In this document: piece by piece, positions 4,074 through 62,451 of the stretch | Numbering within the stretch: position 1 is the first letter of the stretch | Layout: every line of letters starts with the position of its first letter | Origin: an uncultured Erysipelotrichaceae bacterium | Lineage (GTDB): Bacteria; Bacillota_I; Bacilli_A; Erysipelotrichales; Erysipelotrichaceae | Assembly (NCBI GenBank): GCA_964613305.1 | Contig: CAZTII010000001.1 | Location: forward strand, 11,990-75,989 | Direction: 5' to 3' | Length of the DNA: 64,000 nt | The notes under the pieces: generated by a model | Told to the model about the DNA's origin: nothing | The model's input: only the letters and a program-made list of their open reading frames with translations | The model's database searches: none | Program-made: the position numbers and the translations under genes

Positions 4074-5594
4074 TTGCAGTGGCTTAAAAATAGTGGCCTT
4101 GAACAAATTATTATTGATTCAATTAAGTCGGTTTTGCCGGTTTATATAATCATTACATTACTGTCGATAGCGTTTATACCGTTATCAAGTCATGTGTATT
4201 TTACATTGCACATTGGAACGTTATTTGTTGTTGCCGGACTAGTCTTTTTTTCTTTAGGAACGGATAGCGCGATGACACCAATCGGTGAAGGTATTGGTAG
4301 TTTGATTGCTCATAGCGATAAAAAATGGTTTATTGTTCTAGTATCGCTTATCATTGGTTTTTCTTGTGCACTAGCAGAACCAAATATTATTTTATTGACG
4401 AAACAGTTTCCTAGTTTGGATAGTAAAATGTTAGTGTTTTTAATTTCAAGTGCAGTTGGTATCTTTGTGATGATTGCGGTTGTAAGAATTTATTTAAAGA
4501 TTAAACTACGTACGATATTTTTGGTTTGTTACACAATGATTATGGTGCTTGCTTTATTAGTAGAACCGCACTTTTTATCGGCAGCTCTAGATTCTGGAGG
4601 AGTTATTACAGGTCCAGTGGTCGTTCCGTTTTTAATGGCAATTGGCGTTGGTTTGTCAAAAAATCGTAGCGATGATGATGCTGAAGATGATGTATTTGGT
4701 TTTGTTGGTTTAAGTGCGTTAGGACCAATGTTATCGGTATTGATTGTTGGTGTAATTGCAAAACCTAAACAAGCACCGATTGACATGTTTACACTTCAAC
4801 ATGGTGATAATACAAAACAATTATTTTCTTTCTTTTATCAGGCAATACCGCAGTACGGTAAAGAAATTGCGAGTGCTTTGTTGCCGTTGTGTATTTTCTT
4901 TGCTTTGTTTCAATGCAGTAAACAGCGTTTTGATAAGGAGAGAATGATGCAAGTGTGGGTTGGTTTATTGTATACTTGGATTGGTTTAGTTCTTTTTCTA
5001 TGTGGTGTGTATGTAGGGTATATGCCAGTTGGTCATCAAGTTGGAATGCAGATTGGGTTAAGCAATCACGCATGGTTAATGATTCCAATCGGGATGCTGC
5101 TTGCTTATTTTATTGTTCTTGCCGAACCGGGTGTATATGTGCTAAACAAACAAGTATCGACAGTAACTGCTGATGCGATTCCAAAATCGGTATTGTCACT
5201 TTGTTTGTCGCTAGGGATAAGCATATCCATTGGATTGGCTTTATTGCGTATTATGTTTGATATTCCTTTATTAGTAATTATATTGCCGATTTTAATTGTT
5301 TCATTGATACTCAGTTTTTTTGTTCCACCACTGTTTACAGCGATTGCTTTTGATTCTGGAGGTGTTGCTTCAGGACCGATGAGTGCAGCATTCTTAATGC
5401 CATTAGCGATGGGTTTTTGTAGCTCGTTTAATAAAGACATCGCTACCTTTGCATTTGGATTAGTTGCCTTAGTTGCGATAGCACCTCTTGCAACCATTCA
5501 AGTTGTCGGCTTTATTGTTTCTATGAAGCAAAAGAAAATACATGAAAGTAAAAAAGTAGAGGAGGAAATAATATACTGTGGTCACTCTGAATAA
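4074..5594 (+). CDS. Polytopic membrane protein with two internal repeats, DUF1538-like
   Basis: The repeated motif DSGGVITGPVVVPFLMAIGVG / DSGGVASGPMSAAFLMPLAMG occurs once in each half, with many TM helices. An in-frame TTG at 4074 sits 6 nt after GGAGGTG; the track start is ATG 4059. The family name is from memory. Confidence 0.7.
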   Translation: MQWLKNSGLEQIIIDSIKSVLPVYIIITLLSIAFIPLSSHVYFTLHIGTLFVVAGLVFFSLGTDSAMTPIGEGIGSLIAHSDKKWFIVLVSLIIGFSCALAEPNIILLTKQFPSLDSKMLVFLISSAVGIFVMIAVVRIYLKIKLRTIFLVCYTMIMVLALLVEPHFLSAALDSGGVITGPVVVPFLMAIGVGLSKNRSDDDAEDDVFGFVGLSALGPMLSVLIVGVIAKPKQAPIDMFTLQHGDNTKQLFSFFYQAIPQYGKEIASALLPLCIFFALFQCSKQRFDKERMMQVWVGLLYTWIGLVLFLCGVYVGYMPVGHQVGMQIGLSNHAWLMIPIGMLLAYFIVLAEPGVYVLNKQVSTVTADAIPKSVLSLCLSLGISISIGLALLRIMFDIPLLVIILPILIVSLILSFFVPPLFTAIAFDSGGVASGPMSAAFLMPLAMGFCSSFNKDIATFAFGLVALVAIAPLATIQVVGFIVSMKQKKIHESKKVEEEIIYCGHSE

Positions 5595-19816: not shown

Positions 19817-19821
19817 GGTAA

Positions 19822-20013
19822 AGAAGATGGTAGGTGAGGCTACTATAAGGATATGGGTTGCTGCCGCAAAATAGTGGAGACACTATGCGCTGGTATGAAT
19901 AGTCTACATTGTACGAAGGTGTAGAATAAAGCAATTTCACCGCCTTATAGAGCTAAAGCTCAAACGTCGTGTAGTTGGACTAGTTGAACTTGCCATTTTA
20001 GCAAGTTTTTTTT
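19822..20013 (+). promoter_or_regulatory. M-box (ykoK-type) Mg2+ riboswitch with intrinsic terminator
   Basis: GGTAGGTGAGGCT, TTGCTGCCGCAAAATAGTGGAGACAC and GAGCTAAAGCTCAAACG match the conserved M-box blocks of B. subtilis ykoK. Terminator GAACTTGC/GCAAGTT plus T8 at 19986-20013. Directly upstream of mgtA. Confidence 0.85.
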
Positions 20014-20116
20014 GATGGGAGGGATTGTTTTGGATAGTATACCGCAACAGAAATACAATAAATAAAGTAAAGATACTTTTTTGTGTGTCTTTACTATAAT
20101 GAAGGAGGTAGAGACG

Positions 20117-22804
20117 ATGAAAAAGAGAAATAATTTTCACCACGTTTATGAACATTCTGATTTAATTTCTATGGCTGAATTTGCTCAGATGGATATGAAT
20201 TTAGTGTATGAGTTTACCCACTCAAAATCTACAGGTTTAAGTAGCGAACAAGTAGAAATAAACTTAGAACAGTTTGGCTCAAATGAAATTACGGAAATGA
20301 AAGAAGATTCTGTCTTTGTTCAGTTTTTAAAAACATTTTTGGACCCATTTTCAATTATTTTAATTTTATTAGCAATTGTATCATATATAACAGATGTTAT
20401 ATTAGTAAGTGGAGAAGATAAAAATCCTATTACTGTTTTTGTTATTTTAATTTTAGTGTTTATAAGTAGTTCCATACGATTTGTACAAGAAAGAAAAAGT
20501 TCTTTAGCTATGACTCAACTTCTTGATCAAGTGGCACTTACCATCGGTGTTTTACGTGATGGTAATGAGATTGAAGTGTCTTTTGATGAAGTAGTTGTTG
20601 GTGACATTATTGTTCTTTCAGCAGGGGATATGCTTCCTGCCGATTGTCGAGTGATTAGTGCAAAGGATTTGTTTGTGTCTCAATCATCATTGACTGGAGA
20701 AAGTGATTCTATTGAAAAAATGGAAAAAATTAGTTCCAGAAAAAAAGATAGTATTATGGATTATGAAAATCTTGTATTTATGGGTAGTGATGTTGTTAGT
20801 GGTGCTGCCTTAGCAATCGTATTAAAAGTTGGTAACCATACAACATTAGGAGAAGTTGCATCAAAATTAACTGAGAAACCAAGTGCTACAAGCTTTGATC
20901 GTAGTGTTAATTCGATTTCAACGCTATTAATTCGTTTTATGTTAGTGATGGTTCCAGTTGTATTTTTTATTAATGGCTTTAGTAAAAAGAATTGGTTGGA
21001 TGCATTTTTGTTTTCGGTGAGTATTGCGGTTGGATTAACACCAGAAATGTTACCAATGATTGTAACGAGTTGTTTAGCTAAAGGTGCTATTGCGATGTCT
21101 AATAAAAAGACGGTTATTAAACAACTTCAGGCAATTCAAAATTTTGGAGCGATGGATATTTTATGTACTGATAAAACAGGAACACTAACACGTGATGAAG
21201 TAATTTTGGAGCATCATTTGAATTTAGACGATGTAGAAGATGATAAGGTGTTATCGTTTGGTTATTTAAATTCATTTCATCAAACAGGTCTTAAAAATTT
21301 AATGGACAAATCGATTATTAAACGTTGTGAATCGATTGTATTTAACGATGAACCGATGAAAAATAATATTATTTCATACAATAAGGTAGATGAAATTCCT
21401 TTTGATTTTGGTAGAAAAAGAATGAGTGTTGTTGTTGAAAACAAGGATAACAATTATTTGATTTGTAAAGGTGCAGTCGAGGAAATGTTATCGCTTTGCA
21501 TTAGTAAAGAAAAAGATAATGTTGTCTCTGAGTTGACTAGTGATGATATCGCATTAGTGAGTAAGCAAGTGGAAGCTTGGAATTTAGAAGGTTTTCGTGT
21601 TATTGCGGTAGCATATAAAAAATGCAAGAAAAATCAACGTATTTTTTCATTAGATGATGAAAAAGACTTAGTATTATTAGGCTATCTTACTTTCTTAGAC
21701 CCACCGAAGGAAAGCGCTGAAGAAGCTATCCGTGCCCTTCATAAACAAGGAATTGATGTTAAGGTATTAACTGGTGATAATGACGCTGTAACACGTGCTA
21801 TATGCGCTAAAGTTGGTATTGCCACGGAACCAATTTGTTTAGGTGTTGATGTTGAAAAGATGACCGATGAAGAATTGTATCAAGTTGCCTTTAAAACACC
21901 AATTTTCGCGAAATTATCGCCGGCTCAAAAAGCACGTATTATTCGTATTTTAAAAGATAGTAATCACACTGTTGGTTATATGGGTGATGGTATTAATGAT
22001 GCCTTAGCACTAAAAGAATCAGATATTGGTATTAGTGTTGATACGGCAGTTGATATTTCTAAAGAAGCAGCGGATATGATTTTATTAGAAAAAGATTTAA
22101 TGGTATTAAAAGATGGAATTATTGAAGGTAGAATAACATGTGTTAACATGATTAAATACTTAAAAATGACCATTAGTAGTAATTTTGGTAACATGTTTAG
22201 TGTTGTTGTAGCTAGTTTATTTTTACCATTTTTACCAATGATTCCAGTACAGCTTATCGTGTTAAATGTTACGTATGATTTAAGTTGTACGGCTATTCCT
22301 TGGGATTTAGTTGATGAGGAATTAATTGACCATCCAACTAAATGGGATAGTGATAGCATAAAGAAGTTCATGGTTTCTATTGGACCGATATCAAGTATTT
22401 TTGATTGTTTAATGTTTGCGATTTTGTACTTTATTTTAATTCCTAAATTGTGTGGTGGAAGTTATTCGACATTATCACCTGCAGCACAACTACAATTTAG
22501 TTCACTATTTCAAACAGGATGGTTTATTGCTTCCATGTGGACTCAATCGTTGGTCATTCACTTTATTCGTACCCAACACATTCCTTTTGTTCAATCAAGA
22601 CCAGCAAAAGTGTTATTTTTTGCCAGTATTTTAAGTATTATTTTTGTTACTAGCTTACCATATACACCTTTAGCGACGTCACTTCATCTTCAACCACTAC
22701 CATTGGAATATTTCTTTTACTTAATTGCTGTTGTAAGTGGTTATATGATGACAATGTTGGTTGCAAAAAAACAATTTATGAAGAAAAATGGTATTTGGAT
22801 TTAA
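20117..22804 (+). CDS. mgtA: Mg2+-importing P-type ATPase
   Basis: TGES, DKTGTLT, TGDN and GDGINDALAL are all present. Start at MKKRNNF (ATG 20117) behind GAAGGAGGT; the track start 20081 is less likely. Confidence 0.88.
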   Translation: MKKRNNFHHVYEHSDLISMAEFAQMDMNLVYEFTHSKSTGLSSEQVEINLEQFGSNEITEMKEDSVFVQFLKTFLDPFSIILILLAIVSYITDVILVSGEDKNPITVFVILILVFISSSIRFVQERKSSLAMTQLLDQVALTIGVLRDGNEIEVSFDEVVVGDIIVLSAGDMLPADCRVISAKDLFVSQSSLTGESDSIEKMEKISSRKKDSIMDYENLVFMGSDVVSGAALAIVLKVGNHTTLGEVASKLTEKPSATSFDRSVNSISTLLIRFMLVMVPVVFFINGFSKKNWLDAFLFSVSIAVGLTPEMLPMIVTSCLAKGAIAMSNKKTVIKQLQAIQNFGAMDILCTDKTGTLTRDEVILEHHLNLDDVEDDKVLSFGYLNSFHQTGLKNLMDKSIIKRCESIVFNDEPMKNNIISYNKVDEIPFDFGRKRMSVVVENKDNNYLICKGAVEEMLSLCISKEKDNVVSELTSDDIALVSKQVEAWNLEGFRVIAVAYKKCKKNQRIFSLDDEKDLVLLGYLTFLDPPKESAEEAIRALHKQGIDVKVLTGDNDAVTRAICAKVGIATEPICLGVDVEKMTDEELYQVAFKTPIFAKLSPAQKARIIRILKDSNHTVGYMGDGINDALALKESDIGISVDTAVDISKEAADMILLEKDLMVLKDGIIEGRITCVNMIKYLKMTISSNFGNMFSVVVASLFLPFLPMIPVQLIVLNVTYDLSCTAIPWDLVDEELIDHPTKWDSDSIKKFMVSIGPISSIFDCLMFAILYFILIPKLCGGSYSTLSPAAQLQFSSLFQTGWFIASMWTQSLVIHFIRTQHIPFVQSRPAKVLFFASILSIIFVTSLPYTPLATSLHLQPLPLEYFFYLIAVVSGYMMTMLVAKKQFMKKNGIWI

Positions 22805-57267: not shown

Positions 57268-57298
57268 AAAAAAAGGATGCGAAATTTTGCATCCTTTC
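57268..57298. terminator. Bidirectional terminator
   Basis: AAAGGATGC GAAATTTT GCATCCTTT flanked by A and T runs, between convergent genes. Confidence 0.75.
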
Positions 57299-57818
57299 AA
57301 TTTAGAGCAAGTGTACCTATCGTATCGGGAGTAGTACTTGATTTAAATGATAAAACTGTAACTTTACTTTCAAGTACGTTATACGTATAGCCTTTACCAA
57401 CTTTACAGCTATTGTTATCATTAACCCCGTTATCGCATAATGTGATAGTGTAATCTGAAAGTCCTCCTTGAGCATTTGTTACATAATTTATAATGACGTT
57501 ATTTAATAAATCACCTATTTTATAATCCATCGTTTTATCAATGGTATTAAATTCTTTTATAAATTTGTCAGATTCTCCACTATCTAAGGAAGCTTGTGCA
57601 CTACTATATAGTAAATTTATGTTATCACCAACCATATCAAGTTTATCGAGGGTAATATCTGTAACCATTCTGATTTGTTTAAGATTTCTAAGAGCTACAG
57701 TTTCTTTCGCTTTAGCGGTGTAGCCAATAATACTTGGAACTATGATTAGGGCTAGCACAGCTAAAATAGAAATGACGATGATTAATTCTACTAAGGTAAA
57801 TCCTAATTTTTTTCTCAT
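57297..57818 (-). CDS. Type IV pilin / ComGC-like pseudopilin (prepilin N-terminal methylation domain)
   Basis: MRKKLG|FTLVELIIVISILAVLALIIVPS is a class III signal peptide with the E+5 residue. A C-terminal Cys pair (LCDNGVNDNNSC) resembles the pilin D-region. Confidence 0.82.
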   Translation of the reverse strand: MRKKLGFTLVELIIVISILAVLALIIVPSIIGYTAKAKETVALRNLKQIRMVTDITLDKLDMVGDNINLLYSSAQASLDSGESDKFIKEFNTIDKTMDYKIGDLLNNVIINYVTNAQGGLSDYTITLCDNGVNDNNSCKVGKGYTYNVLESKVTVLSFKSSTTPDTIGTLALN

Positions 57819-57838: not shown

Positions 57839-59212
57839 CTATATGTGCAATAAGAAATGAGCAATATTGAAGTAGACGATAAGGGAAATAGCATCTACAA
57901 TTGTTGTGATAAATGGTGCTGACATTACTGCAGGGTCAAAACCAATTTTCTTAGAGATAAGTGGTAAAGTACCTCCTACAAGTTTTGCAACGATGACAGT
58001 AATTAACAATGTTAAGTTTACAGTTAATGAAACGATAAGCGATACTTTATCAAAGAAGAGTAATTTGAAGAAGTTGGCAATAGCAAGCGTAATACCGCAT
58101 ACAATGGCAACTTGGAATTCTTTGAAAATAACTTTAAAGATATCACTATATTCAATCTCTCCTAATGATAACCCACGAATTAGTGTAACAGAGGCTTGTG
58201 AGCCACTATTTCCACCAGTATCCATCAACATTGGAATATAAGCTACAAGCACTACTTGCGTTGCGAGAGCATTTTCAAATTTAGATATAATTAAACCAGT
58301 AAAGGTAGCTGAAACCATTAAAAATAGTAACCATGGAATTCTGGCTTTCCAAATTTCAAAAACATTCATTTTAAGATATTCTTTGTCACTTGAAATAACA
58401 GCTCCCATTTTTTCAATGTCTTCAGCGTGTTCTTCTTTTATGACTTCAATAGCGTCATCTACAGTGATGATACCGACTAGGCGACTTTCTAAATCGACTA
58501 CTGGTAGTGCCATAAAACCGTATTTACTAAATACTTCTGCGACTATTTCTTGATCATCGGTAGTTTGGACAGAGATAACATTCTCTTCCATGATATCTTC
58601 TATTTTATCCTTATAATCAGCTAATAACAAGTCCTTGACAGAACAAAGACCAATTAATTTTCTTTTTTCATCGATAACATAACAAGTATATACGGTTTCT
58701 TTGTGTAGTCCAATGCGTCTAATTCGTTTAAAGGCATCCTCAACTGTCATATTCTTTTTGAAATCAATATATTCAATTGTCATAATGCTTCCAGCACTGT
58801 TCTCAGGGTAATTTAAGAGCTGATTAATAATAACTCTTGTTTCAGCACTGACATTTTTAAGAATGCGTTTTACGACGAATGCTGGCATTTCTTCAATGAT
58901 ATCAACAGTGTCATCTAAATATAAATCATTGATAACATCACGTAACTCAGTATCGTTAAAACCATTAATTAAACTCTCTTGCATTTCAAAACTCATTTCA
59001 ACAAAGGTATCTGATGCCATATCTTTAGGAAGGATTCTAAACAGAAACATCAATTCTTCGTGATTAATAGATTTATTATCCCATAATTCTTCAAATGCTT
59101 CAGCGATATCTGTCGCATTTTTATTTGCTAAACAATCATGTAATTCTTTTCTTTTTTTATTTTTTAAATAGGTACATATTAACTCTTCAAGTTGATGTAG
59201 TTCTTCAGCCAT
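57839..59212 (-). CDS. mgtE: Magnesium transporter MgtE
   Basis: N-domain, tandem CBS domains, and a C-terminal 5-TM domain with PMLMDTGGNSGSQ. ATG 59212 behind GGAGGTTAACC. Confidence 0.9.
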   Translation of the reverse strand: MAEELHQLEELICTYLKNKKRKELHDCLANKNATDIAEAFEELWDNKSINHEELMFLFRILPKDMASDTFVEMSFEMQESLINGFNDTELRDVINDLYLDDTVDIIEEMPAFVVKRILKNVSAETRVIINQLLNYPENSAGSIMTIEYIDFKKNMTVEDAFKRIRRIGLHKETVYTCYVIDEKRKLIGLCSVKDLLLADYKDKIEDIMEENVISVQTTDDQEIVAEVFSKYGFMALPVVDLESRLVGIITVDDAIEVIKEEHAEDIEKMGAVISSDKEYLKMNVFEIWKARIPWLLFLMVSATFTGLIISKFENALATQVVLVAYIPMLMDTGGNSGSQASVTLIRGLSLGEIEYSDIFKVIFKEFQVAIVCGITLAIANFFKLLFFDKVSLIVSLTVNLTLLITVIVAKLVGGTLPLISKKIGFDPAVMSAPFITTIVDAISLIVYFNIAHFLLHI

Positions 59213-59248
59213 GGTTAACCTCCTATAATGTGAATTCCTCACTTTTAA

Positions 59249-59257
59249 ATTATACCA
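59249..59257 (-). promoter_or_regulatory. Extended -10 promoter element of mgtE
   Basis: Minus strand TGGTATAAT, about 36 nt upstream of the mgtE ATG. There is no good -35. Confidence 0.45.
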
Positions 59258-59430
59258 TAAATATTTTTTTAAAAATAGGTCTATTATTATCTATACAATG
59301 AGGTATTATATAGATGTAAAAAGAAACATACGAGGTGATTCAAATGAAAAAGGTGTTACTAGAATATCTACACTAGTCTATATGGAAGGGCAGAATTTCA
59401 TATAGACGGCAAAAAAAATAATATGAAAGT

Positions 59431-59472
59431 GAAAGTCTGCATGAGGGCATACCAATGGACAATGAAAGTATA
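59431..59472 (+). repeat. Motif copy 1 (GAAAG-N5-ATG...ATACCAATGGACAATGAAAGTATA)
   Basis: GAAAGTCTGCATGAGGGCATACCAATGGACAATGAAAGTATA. The last 24 nt are identical to copy 2. Confidence 0.8.
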
Positions 59473-59538
59473 GGGATTCAATAAACTAATCATTAAAGCA
59501 AATGATAAATGCAATGACGATTGATTAGTTAAAGTGAC

Positions 59539-59555
59539 GTATGTTGAGAAATATA
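59539..59555 (+). repeat. 17-nt box, copy 1
   Basis: GTATGTTGAGAAATATA is identical to 59727-59743. It is itself related to the GTATGTTTAGGATATA core of the main motif. Confidence 0.75.
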
Positions 59556-59598
59556 TAGTGTTAAATGGTAGTCATAAGAATGTCGAATATAGTGAATG

Positions 59599-59640
59599 GA
59601 AAGGTATGTTTAGGATATACCAATGGACAATGAAAGTATA
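59599..59640 (+). repeat. Motif copy 2
   Basis: GAAAGGTATGTTTAGGATATACCAATGGACAATGAAAGTATA. Confidence 0.85.
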
Positions 59641-59726
59641 ATATATCAATAAAAGCTAATCATTTAGGCAAATAACAACAAAATAAGTATTATAAATGTG
59701 ATTAGTTTGATAGTTATTATGGTAGT

Positions 59727-59743
59727 GTATGTTGAGAAATATA
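59727..59743 (+). repeat. 17-nt box, copy 2
   Basis: GTATGTTGAGAAATATA. Confidence 0.75.
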
Positions 59744-59790
59744 CGACGTTGATTATAAGGTTTGAGTTTTAATCAATAAATAATTGAATG

Positions 59791-59817
59791 GAAAGGTATG
59801 TTTAGGATATACCAATG
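59791..59817 (+). repeat. Motif copy 3 (5' part only)
   Basis: GAAAGGTATGTTTAGGATATACCAATG is identical to copy 2 over 27 nt (plus the shared upstream GAATG), then diverges. Confidence 0.85.
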
Positions 59818-59876
59818 AATAGTTTATAAAGCAGTGATGTTTAAAGGTCAGTGAAGTAAATCAAAACTAAGTAGCA

Positions 59877-59903
59877 GAAAGGCATGTTAAGGATACACCA
59901 ATA
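59877..59903 (+). repeat. Motif copy 4 (diverged, 5' part only)
   Basis: GAAAGGCATGTTAAGGATACACCAATA has 4 substitutions relative to copy 3. Confidence 0.7.
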
Positions 59904-60133
59904 GATGGTACATGAAGTATTAGTTGTTAACTATAATTAATAGTATACATGGTTAATAAATAATTTAATGGTATAAAGTAGCTATACTAGTGTAGATTGA
60001 GTATTAATCGAATAATGAATGTATTGAATTATGTAAGTATCGAAATAAGTAGTTATCTTAACAAAAGTATCAAGTTATTTAATAATTGATTAAAAAAGTG
60101 TTAAAACAACACAAAAGAAGCTGGCTTACTAAG

Positions 60134-60209
60134 AAAATTTAAAAAAGGCCTCTAACATATCATCGATTCACAATAGCTAAGTGAAGATGGTGATATGGAA
60201 GAGGTCTTT
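60134..60209 (-). terminator. Long imperfect hairpin plus U-run, terminator of the degenerate ATPase gene
   Basis: Minus strand: AAAGACCTCT...(inner CATATCA/TGATATG pairing)...AGAGGCCTTTTTT. The plus-strand reading is also hairpin + TTTT. Confidence 0.6.
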
Positions 60210-60210
60210 T

Positions 60211-62451
60211 CTATGACTGTTGAATGTATGAAATAGAGCATCCTAAACTTTCAAATAAGTTTTTAATTTTGTTTATTTCATAGATCGATGATGTTTCTAC
60301 AAGTATTGTCGTATCATCAATAAATGATACATGAAATCCATCGATTGATATGGTTTTATTTAATCTATCTTTTAGATGAATCGTATAAAAATAGCGCTTA
60401 GTATTAATATTTTTTAAAGGTAATACTGACTTCCATAATAAAAGATATGATAATAATGAAATAGACATGATGAGTAGTGGCGAAAAGTTAATAAAAGGAA
60501 GAATAGAAATAATGATTAAGCATACTTGAGTGTATAATGTTCTTTTTTTTATTTGTATCATTTCTTGTTGAAATTGTTCTGTTAATGAAAAACATGAAGT
60601 TAGAAATGAAATGTCATTGTTTAAAACAAATAGTGGTGCTTTTTTTGGTAAAAATGATGGTCCACAATTTAAAACTATCGTATGTTGATTATCAATGAAA
60701 CCTTGGTTGATAAATAACATTTTTTTATGATTGTTTTCACAATATTCAATCATTTTAATTTCTTTGGTTAATGTCATATCGAATTCAATAAAGTCCATGT
60801 TACATGGTTTTAAGTAACGCTTTGCTTTTTCATCGTTATTTACTAGACAAGCACATATTTCTTTTTGATGCTTTTTTAGCGTTGATATCGTTGCTTTTAC
60901 GGTAGGTAAGATAGTTTCTTCGATAGCTATAATCCCTAAAACCTCCATGTTATTTAACACTAAGCGACACATTTTTCCTTCTGAATGATATGATGATATT
61001 GTATTTTGAACAGTATATGGCAGAGTATTATTATCAATATCGTCGCTATTAACTATCGTGGATGATTGAAAATAAGTTGCTTCTTTTTTAAATAAGTTTT
61101 TAAAGCTATCATTATTGACTTGTTGAAAAGCGGTTTCTTTTAAATATTGCATTACCGCAAGAGATGTAGGAGTTTTGGATTTACTTTCTAGGGTGTGCAA
61201 CAAGACAGAAAATTCGTTTAAATCCATCTGACTTGAAATCATTACATCGCTAACACGCGGTGTTTTATCGCATAAAACGTTGTCTTTATAAAAGGCAAAG
61301 ATATCTGTATCTTTAAGTTGTAATACTTGATTAAAACTATCAAAGAATATCATTTGTTGATTAGCTCGATGGGATAAGAAGGTACTAATTAGTTCTTTAG
61401 CGAAAAGGTAGAGATCACCAACATAAGCGACTAGAAAGCTAATGATGGTAATCGCGGCGCTTGATATATTTTTTGTTACTATATAATTTAGTAGTCCAAT
61501 AAAAATGGAAGAAACGCCATATAATAATGGAATTCTATTTAATAAAGTTTCCTCGGTAGTTACTGTTGTTGATAAAAAAGTTGAGTCGATATGCTGTTGT
61601 AATTGATGATAGAATGACTCATCATATTTTTTATCAACTCTAATTTCAATTGGTGCGTGTAAATTAGTGGAAAGAGCGAATACTTGGCTGTTTACAGATG
61701 CCTGTTGTGGATATTTATTTCCAAGTAAGAACAATGTATCGATAAAAGTAAATCCTTTTGTAATTGTTCCATCTAGTGGAATTATACAGTTTTTATCGAT
61801 TAAAATGATATCGCCGACATTAATTGTTGAAATATCGACGTCAATAGAAGTGTGGTTTTTAACTAATTTACATTTTTTTGGTTGTTTTAAATTATACCGA
61901 TAGTGTATTAACGATATTTTCTGTTTGAATAATGTGAATATATAGCTTTTACATGTACTTAAATGGATAATAATAATTGGATGAAAAAATAAATGATGTT
62001 GATTAATATTGATTGCTAAACTTAGGAAAATACTTATAAATAGTAGTGTTTCACTAGTGAATTTTTTAAATTGCAGTTGGTCAATAAGAATATCTTTCAT
62101 AAAATAGATATTGGTAAAGAATAGTAAGAGTTGTATTAAGTTTACTATTAGTGTAGGTAATTGTAAAAATGAGATGCTTGTAATGGTAATCAATGACATT
62201 AAACCGATTAATAACTGTCGTTTTAGTGATAATGATTGTTTATTTGAGTTGAAATTAAAACATTTATACGATGATACTAAAATGGTTAGTGATGATAGTG
62301 ATAAAACACGTTCATCAAATTCAACTAGAAATGTAAAAGTGCATTGTTGGTACTCACAACGTAGAACACCAGGGATAGAATGTATGGTTGCAAGCAGTTT
62401 TTCAGCATTTATCGGATTTAAAGGATGATTACAAGGAAATTTATAACGCAT
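60211..62451 (-). CDS. CopA-like P1B-ATPase homolog lacking all catalytic motifs (predicted pseudo-ATPase membrane protein)
   Basis: Intact 746-aa ORF behind GGAGTGAT. It aligns by eye to the window's own CopA through the actuator, P and N domains, but TGES, CPC, DKTGT, HP, TGD and GDGxNDxP are all replaced (details in findings). Confidence 0.75.
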   Translation of the reverse strand: MRYKFPCNHPLNPINAEKLLATIHSIPGVLRCEYQQCTFTFLVEFDERVLSLSSLTILVSSYKCFNFNSNKQSLSLKRQLLIGLMSLITITSISFLQLPTLIVNLIQLLLFFTNIYFMKDILIDQLQFKKFTSETLLFISIFLSLAININQHHLFFHPIIIIHLSTCKSYIFTLFKQKISLIHYRYNLKQPKKCKLVKNHTSIDVDISTINVGDIILIDKNCIIPLDGTITKGFTFIDTLFLLGNKYPQQASVNSQVFALSTNLHAPIEIRVDKKYDESFYHQLQQHIDSTFLSTTVTTEETLLNRIPLLYGVSSIFIGLLNYIVTKNISSAAITIISFLVAYVGDLYLFAKELISTFLSHRANQQMIFFDSFNQVLQLKDTDIFAFYKDNVLCDKTPRVSDVMISSQMDLNEFSVLLHTLESKSKTPTSLAVMQYLKETAFQQVNNDSFKNLFKKEATYFQSSTIVNSDDIDNNTLPYTVQNTISSYHSEGKMCRLVLNNMEVLGIIAIEETILPTVKATISTLKKHQKEICACLVNNDEKAKRYLKPCNMDFIEFDMTLTKEIKMIEYCENNHKKMLFINQGFIDNQHTIVLNCGPSFLPKKAPLFVLNNDISFLTSCFSLTEQFQQEMIQIKKRTLYTQVCLIIISILPFINFSPLLIMSISLLSYLLLWKSVLPLKNINTKRYFYTIHLKDRLNKTISIDGFHVSFIDDTTILVETSSIYEINKIKNLFESLGCSISYIQQS

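Follow-up and report, generated by a model that had tools for sequence, protein, structure and literature searches.

The long small RNA (sRNA) RsaC of Staphylococcus aureus is linked to the manganese transporter mntABC; next to a conserved part that is structurally independent, it carries internal repeats whose variable number determines its length (PMC6765141). The M-box (ykoK, RF00380), an Mg2+ riboswitch, is a conserved non-coding element tied to mgtE. In the translational-attenuation leaders of erm, cat and cmlA, a strong Shine-Dalgarno (SD) sequence is followed by a leader open reading frame (ORF) of ~8–10 codons, a hairpin, and a second SD-like site with an AUG. Here we compare with these systems the 998-nt gap between mgtE and a P-type-ATPase-like ORF (positions 59213-60210) in a 64,000-nt stretch of DNA from an uncultured Erysipelotrichaceae bacterium (contig CAZTII010000001.1), hereafter referred to as the window, to which the coordinates refer. 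The gap may well hold a lineage-restricted, non-Rfam RNA gene, which would be transcribed from the + strand divergently from mgtE, bear a micro-ORF and contain an amplified effector box. We put this reading forward tentatively, as one that falls a little short of probable.

The unit was found in two related species, one of them represented by four loci (L090, L091, L092, and L094) and the other by locus L093, with the window as the third lineage. It accompanies mgtE despite differing upstream neighbours, which are the ATPase gene in L090 and in the window and the kdp operon in L093, whose mgtE is 91% identical to that of L090. The ~250 nt nearest to mgtE are conserved in both other species despite saturated synonymous sites: at the four-fold degenerate sites of mgtE, identity between the window and the relatives is 30–36%, against a chance level of ~33% estimated from composition, and mgtE of the window is 70% identical to that of its syntenic relative. 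Between L090 and L093 the four-fold sites are 44% identical, and the spacers share 82.5% identity over 418 nt, which equals the identity of the mgtE coding DNA. The blocks common to the window and both relatives are TGGTATAAT, GTATTAT..TGTAAA.AGA and GCAGA, together with a micro-ORF block, ATGAAAAAGGTGTTACT.GAAT, of 88–92% identity between window and relatives, and a box block, GAAAG.GAAAGTCTGCA...AGG..A.ACC.ATGGACA, of 80% identity.

The conserved module at ~59332-59461, which would be the 5' part of the RNA, opens with a strong ribosome-binding site; the micro-ORF of 10 codons comes next, then a hairpin at its stop codon (H1), an A-rich linker and a purine-rich box (Table 1). The SD and ATG are present on the + strand alone. 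In the relatives, GAAAGGAGGA precedes the same ATG in a different register after an 11-nt indel; hence, a long SD (8–9 nt) is kept in shifted register before an invariant ATG. The micro-ORF, which lies on the strand opposite mgtE, has 8–10 codons and encodes MKKVLLE[F/Y], with MKKVLLEF* in the relatives and one synonymous Leu change and one F/Y change between the lineages. H1 of the window has a folding energy (dG) of −14.4 on the + strand (z = −6.0 relative to shuffles) and −9.6 on the − strand. The hairpin in the same position of L090 and L093 has a different stem sequence (40–49% identity) and the conserved GCAGA loop, and compensatory pairs between these two loci occur both in H1 and in a CUAGAU/AUCUAG hairpin. 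An A-rich linker separates H1 from the box in the window. In the relatives two more hairpins follow the box, one of them with a C-G to U-A compensatory change, and a 12-bp palindromic hairpin closes the unit, which is ~300 nt long and has an intrinsic terminator at its end.

The box is present once in the relatives and in 4–5 copies in the window, with the consensus GAAAG...AGGATA.ACC.ATGGA. Its core elements GAAAG, AGGATA and ACCAAT are conserved between the species and retained in every copy, and AGGA or GAGG stands 7–8 nt ahead of the AUG in five of the six good box copies; in copy c1, for instance, an SD-like GAGG precedes the AUG. The 33 nt of copies c2 and c3 make up an exact direct repeat, c4 is a further copy, and a 42-nt repeat links 59444-59485 with 59612-59653, the unit spacing of the direct repeats being 168–192 nt. 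The similarity of c2 to c1 extends to 59653. In 300 dinucleotide shuffles the longest direct repeat did not exceed 15 nt. Identity of c2 and c3 over 33 nt inside units that are ~70% identical requires either selection or gene conversion, as its probability by chance is 0.7^33, or ~1e-5. In four other sequencing runs the species is represented by five contigs (L084 among them), which match both ends of the gap with a single difference (L084, position 59903) and stop at 59622 and 59788, exactly at the two 33-nt copies, as expected of short-k assemblies that meet a true repeat. The repeat is therefore no assembly artefact of the window record. The species occurs in SRR29243454, SRR8925813, SRR8925814 and SRR16308658, and the relatives in ERR13998771 and related runs and in ERZ4240422.

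The + strand is favoured by roughly two to one, based on the location of SD and ATG, the energies of H1, and three further observations. Firstly, the terminal hairpin of L093 has its T-run on the anti-mgtE strand only. Secondly, three single-sided helix substitutions between L090 and L093 yield G-U pairs on the anti-mgtE strand and A-C mismatches on the other, and H1 of L093 has an energy of −9.8 on the anti-mgtE strand vs −3.8 (z = −1.1) on the mgtE-sense strand. Thirdly, the region of the window folds as a whole to −186 kcal/mol (z = −6.6) on the + strand vs −124 (z = −2.1) on the − strand.

Table 1 Features of the mgtE–ATPase gap and of its boundaries in window coordinates.
Feature	Position	Strand	Sequence or composition	Remarks
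Extended −10 box of mgtE	59249..59257	−	TGGTATAAT	Proximal boundary of the element; from sequence; invariant in window, L090 and L093
Aligned block	59303..59325	undecided	GTATTAT..A..TGTAAA.AGA	Aligned in relatives
Shine-Dalgarno	59332..59339	+	GAGGTGAT	8 nt complementary to 16S 3' end; ATG 4 nt downstream
Micro-ORF 1	59344..59376	+	MKKVLLEYLH* (ATG AAA AAG GTG TTA CTA GAA TAT CTA CAC TAG)	
Hairpin H1	59376..59407	+	12-bp stem, 8-nt loop with GCAGA	Begins at last base of stop codon
Motif copy c1	59425..59461	+	GAAAGTGAAAGTCTGCATGAGGGCATACCAATGGACA	Ancestral position; 80% identical to single copy of L090/L093
Tandem unit U1	59444-59611 (~168 nt)	+	Motif, CTAATCA...TGATTAG hairpin, GTATGTTGAGAAATATAC hairpin	~70% identical to U2
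Motif copy c2	59593..59625	+	TGAATGGAAAGGTATGTTTAGGATATACCAATG	33-nt exact repeat
Tandem unit U2	59612-59800 (~188 nt)	+	Same elements as U1	~70% identical to U1
Motif copy c3	59785..59817	+	Equals c2	Surrounding units ~70% alike; independent contigs break here
Motif copy c4	59871..59903	+		73% identity to c2
Degenerate fifth copy	59955..59997	+	AATAAATAATTTAATGGTATAAAGTAGCTATAC	Repeat family D5; from alignment
Terminator hairpin	60143-60210	both	Bidirectional	Abuts ATPase stop codon; from folding and T-runs

Much of what a sequence-only reading had noted about this locus is borne out. The gap between mgtE (457 aa; domains MgtE_N, CBS, and MgtE; 57839-59212, minus strand) and the ATPase-like ORF (746 aa; 60211-62451, minus strand) had been described as an unusually large spacer without any ORF of at least 60 aa on either strand in 59301-60210; it is the largest gap in the window between ORFs of at least 120 aa, and its longest ORFs on both strands are 35–38 aa. 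The promoter assigned to mgtE itself is supported by TGGTATAAT, which lies 36 nt upstream of the mgtE ATG and is kept in all three lineages. The long hairpin that was said to be readable from both strands has a dG of −33.3 kcal/mol (z = −6.5) for the + strand and of −25.7 (z = −5.0) for the − strand, and T-runs flank it on both sides. Likewise confirmed were the four motif copies and the two tandem units of ~170–190 nt, the 33-nt exact repeat being unmatched in shuffles, and the absence of an M-box, with positive controls that worked. The one element of that description without support was an 11-nt inverted repeat, thought able to close a domain of ~630 nt: the repeat exists (59366-59380 / 59983-59997, with a 12-nt exact core), and exact inverted repeats of at least 11 nt occurred in 35% and of at least 12 nt in 10% of 300 shuffles, so it carries no weight.

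With regard to the M-box, no match to RF00380 was obtained at E ≤ 10 in 58800-60600 of the window or in 5250-6010 of L093. The same search recovered an M-box of 90 bits at 19819-19975 and T-box and tRNA matches elsewhere in the window, and M-boxes of 94–105 bits upstream of mgtE in five sister loci (L001, L003, L004, L009, and L086). The M-box before mgtE is missing in the three lineages that carry the unit. The M-box at 19819-19975 (+) precedes a 907-aa P-type cation ATPase (20081-22804, +; Cation_ATPase_N and Cation_ATPase_C), which indicates that this genome uses an M-box for one putative Mg2+ transporter and not for mgtE.

The unit is a candidate regulator and would be a previously undescribed RNA or mini-gene unit. 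A transcript of the + strand, if made, would be ~0.9 kb long, since the next terminator is 60143-60210, the sole + strand candidate 3' of micro-ORF 1 within the gap. The micro-ORF would be translated, and the terminating ribosome would open H1. The box, which as RNA (GAAAG...AGGAUA.ACC.AUGGA) resembles a weak ribosome-binding site with a start codon, would serve as an effector site for a protein, the 30S subunit or another RNA, and the tandem duplication of the box-bearing segment, which produced the 4–5 copies in this species, would raise valency. A connection with Mg2+ homeostasis is suggested by the company that the unit keeps, namely mgtE genes devoid of the usual M-box. A more specific version is improbable: it would make the unit the first of a new class of regulatory RNAs, trans-acting and translation-gated, to which control of Mg2+/mgtE passed after loss of the M-box in this lineage. 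According to this version, Mg2+-sensitive ribosome traffic on the micro-ORF would open H1 and free the box, which would titrate a factor or the 30S subunit, with the 4–5 copies tuning the dose.

Several observations weigh against the proposed RNA gene. Scans found no convincing sigma-A promoter on the + strand, and a TTTACA-16-TATATT promoter occurs on the mgtE strand in L090. Windows of 150 nt across the repeats (59400-60100) reached z-scores of only −0.5 to −1.4 on the + strand and ~0 on the − strand, the pairing of c4 is slightly better on the minus strand, and the box folds significantly in c2 and c3 alone and not in most copies. The ORFs that follow the box have just 4–9 codons, with Met-Asp as their only common part. 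Gene conversion instead of selection could explain why c2 equals c3. The unit is known from three lineages only, two of which are close, and covariation therefore has little power. Finally, the adjoining ATPase gene is a decayed orthologue, and the locus may hence be under relaxed constraint in this lineage.

The first of the two main alternatives, which we consider unlikely, holds that only the ~250 nt proximal to mgtE are functional, that the distal ~600 nt (c2–c5 and the tail) arose by neutral slippage or unequal recombination in a decaying locus, and that a recent gene conversion made c2 and c3 equal. The distal ~600 nt have no counterpart in the relatives, their local folding is the same as that of shuffled sequences, and GGA and AGGA are not enriched in the gap; the neighbouring ATPase-like protein, moreover, is only 24% identical to its syntenic orthologue vs 70% for mgtE. 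A purely neutral origin is harder to reconcile with the 33-nt identity, which is improbable in units 30% diverged unless conversion or selection acted, and with the presence of the cross-species core GAAAG, AGGATA and ACCAAT in all copies. In addition, all four sequencing runs show an equal architecture, even in contigs with ~0.2–0.3% divergence from the window.

The conserved region could also act on the mgtE-sense (minus) strand, where it would replace the M-box, either as an extended 5' leader or as a regulatory region farther upstream. We regard this as rather unlikely. It would involve a promoter upstream, boxes that are CU-rich and anti-SD-like and, in the relatives only, a terminator ahead of mgtE; cis elements or operator sites that became amplified would account for the repeats. 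This explanation gains from the invariable position of the region 5' of mgtE, from the absence of the M-box exactly where the element is carried, and from the L090 locus, in which the sense strand has the promoter mentioned above and a fold with z = −5.3; in the relatives, moreover, an intrinsic terminator, GAGGTAACAAG..CTTGTTATCTTTTTT, separates the region from the mgtE ATG. However, the perfect extended −10 box TGGTATAAT is conserved downstream of the region in all three lineages, so the region need not be part of the mgtE mRNA at all, and the leader terminator is absent from the window. H1 of L093 is unstable on the sense strand, where the three substitutions give A-C mismatches, and the T-run of the distal L093 hairpin exists on the other strand only. 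The half-sites of the box hairpin vary between lineages, which would be unusual for a protein operator.

The sequence-only reading had offered a large structured RNA or an sRNA/micro-ORF cluster as candidates for the gap. The second half of this proposal is supported by the conserved SD, micro-ORF, hairpin and motif, whereas the first finds no support. A large structured non-coding RNA of the OLE, GOLLD, ROOL, HEARO or raiA kind, with a length of ~0.9 kb and the 59366/59987 inverted repeat as its closing helix, is very improbable. The region is bounded by a terminator and free of ORFs, and its + strand as a whole folds better than 20 shuffles (z = −6.6). Among 150-nt windows, by contrast, folding beyond shuffles is confined to H1 and the terminator, the closing inverted repeat is at chance level, and the relatives lack two thirds of the region, its distal ~600 nt being lineage-specific; neither conservation over the full length nor covarying long-range helices were found. 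Since the repeat region lacks significant local folding and does not occur in the relatives, its size of 0.9 kb reflects lineage-specific amplification and not a large conserved fold. A comparison of the gap with all Rfam models, OLE, GOLLD, HEARO, ROOL and raiA included, which had been suggested as a check, matched no family at E ≤ 10: cmscan on both strands of 58800-60600 gave only chance matches of snoRNA and CRISPR type far below gathering scores, there was no match in 5250-6010 of L093, and sRNA families including RsaC gave no Rfam match in the gap. Equally implausible is a dispersed genomic repeat (REP-, BOX- or MITE-like) or the remnant of a mobile element, which the modular, tandem, hairpin-forming units recall by a superficial resemblance to BOX and which the sequence-only reading had named as a possible refutation, because the motif has no second site in the 64-kb window, in 99 loci, or in plasmid, phage and viral collections, and the relatives hold a single orthologous copy at the same position.

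Further candidate classes were considered. A CsrA-type sponge (CsrB/RsmZ) was rejected as GGA is not enriched in the gap (10 vs 12.4 ± 2.4 in shuffles; AGGA 3 vs 5.0) and a significant hairpin is limited to c2 and c3, where for c2 the GGTATGT/ATATACC stem has a dG of −7.2 on the + strand (z = −2.5) vs −3.0 on the − strand. For a type III toxin-antitoxin locus (ToxI-like), TRF detected no regular array across the units, and no downstream ORF of at least 60 aa precedes the terminator. The SD, leader ORF and hairpin of a translational-attenuation leader are present (10-codon ORF, H1); a regulated gene immediately downstream on the same strand was not found in the window, and a terminator closes the unit in both L090 and L093. 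A replication origin, an idea that came from a local excess of G over C, was rejected since the GC skew is positive throughout the window without a switch.

Beyond the two related species, a module profile run over the 99 loci and the rest of the window gave no match other than at the orthologous site, and a metagenome scan with a 21-base micro-ORF pattern returned just four unrelated and apparently chance matches. The nearest mgtE among the species representatives of the genome collection is at most 61% identical, and none of these carries the element. In a collection of 5.8 billion proteins the closest mgtE is ~70–74% identical, and those with a named source are mostly labelled Oscillospiraceae. 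The contig of one intermediate mgtE relative (P0038) is without the region upstream of mgtE.

Two alternative coding interpretations of the module were rejected. A longer ORF of 26–35 aa that spans micro-ORF 1 has no SD and a frame that is not conserved, and a protein encoded across the box on the mgtE-sense strand is incompatible with a 1-nt indel that breaks the frame between the lineages. Within the module, the invariant H1 loop (U)GCAGA (59390-59394) is complementary to UCUGC(A), which is equally invariant and borders the box on its 5' side (59436-59441). This complementarity amounts to 5–6 bp in all three lineages and is absent from copies c2–c4; a loop-to-box pairing or an alternative structure is possible. 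The aligned block at 59303..59325 could belong to the + strand RNA, as its 5' end or its promoter region, or could be the TTTACA −35 box of a second mgtE-sense promoter.

Among the repeats, the last base of c4 (59903) is polymorphic between strains, with A in the window and G in L084 (SRR16308658), and the G allele restores the consensus CCAATGGA with ATG in this copy. The degenerate fifth copy holds the 3' arm of the chance-level inverted repeat. It also contains an extended −10-like sequence, TGGTATAAA (59969-59977, +), which could start a separate RNA of ~230 nt with its end at the 60143-60210 terminator.

On the mgtE side, the relatives have a terminator-like hairpin, GAGGTAACAAG..CTTGTTATC followed by T6, directly 3' of the mgtE promoter box TGGTATAAT (5919-5944 in L090 and about 5915-5945 in L093), and then a second TATAAT box. 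The window has a deletion of this whole segment (site around 59213-59248), and its mgtE leader is ~36 nt long. That the box pairs with the terminator of the mgtE leader was considered and rejected, the 8-bp match being present in L090, not in L093, and absent in the window. Just downstream of mgtE, a 173-aa ORF with an N-terminal methylation (pilin-like) motif (57297-57818, minus) is a strain-variable hotspot that accounts for 8 of the 20 single-nucleotide polymorphisms of contig L081, in which it is called as two ORFs (49 and 123 aa).

On the other side, the 746-aa ATPase-like ORF is the syntenic orthologue of an 820-aa HMA-type P1B ATPase of the relatives. It has lost the DKTG, CPC, TGE and GDGxND motifs and both HMA domains, and it keeps an intact 2.2-kb frame in DNA of ~27% GC. 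A search with the protein against the 5.8 billion proteins gave no match below 1e-20 except itself. The possibility that the gap is the decayed 3' end of the ATPase gene (HMA domain) was rejected, as tblastn for the lost C-terminal domain detected no remnant in the gap. In the L090 species the gene order is M20 peptidase, phosphatase, M24 peptidase, HMA-type ATPase, a 490-nt spacer and mgtE, with an FtsX/ABC/YknX cluster next. In L093 the space from the unit's terminator to kdpA contains a 62-aa ORF without a Pfam match (5072-5260, minus strand of this locus), which shares its strand with the proposed RNA.

If transcribed, the unit would represent an undescribed RNA family from a rarely sampled uncultured group, conserved as strongly as the adjoining coding sequence. 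Its occurrence beside mgtE genes without the otherwise common M-box would be a lead for an alternative Mg2+-linked regulation, and it may illustrate, as a candidate from three lineages, how an sRNA grows threefold through amplification of one functional box.

Compared with the described systems, the candidate unit shares with BOX, REP and MITE repeats its modular, hairpin-forming units in tandem and in an intergenic location, but it is not dispersed in the sequences searched, and its founder copy is orthologously conserved in other species. Like the M-box it is a conserved non-coding element tied to mgtE, and it is present where the M-box is missing. It differs from the M-box in that no model matches it and that its place is 5' of the promoter of mgtE, with the opposite strand as the most likely one; a cis leader aptamer it is therefore not. 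Leaders of the erm, cat and cmlA type have the same order of SD, leader ORF, hairpin and second SD, with the second site partly embedded in pairing; here, however, no regulated gene follows, the second ORF consists of 4–9 non-conserved codons, and the unit of the relatives terminates. By analogy, RsaC is the closest functional counterpart of the candidate, without homology: there is no sequence or Rfam similarity. RsaC is reportedly released from the mntABC 3' untranslated region, whereas the unit described here is, on the favoured strand, divergent from mgtE and antisense to the direction of the ATPase gene, an orientation that argues against RsaC-like processing from a 3' untranslated region. 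The repeats of RsaC are located 5', an arrangement opposite to that of the present unit, in which they lie 3' of the conserved part. Both are unusually long sRNA loci, putative in the present case, that adjoin a metal-transporter gene and in which repeats stand beside a conserved part.

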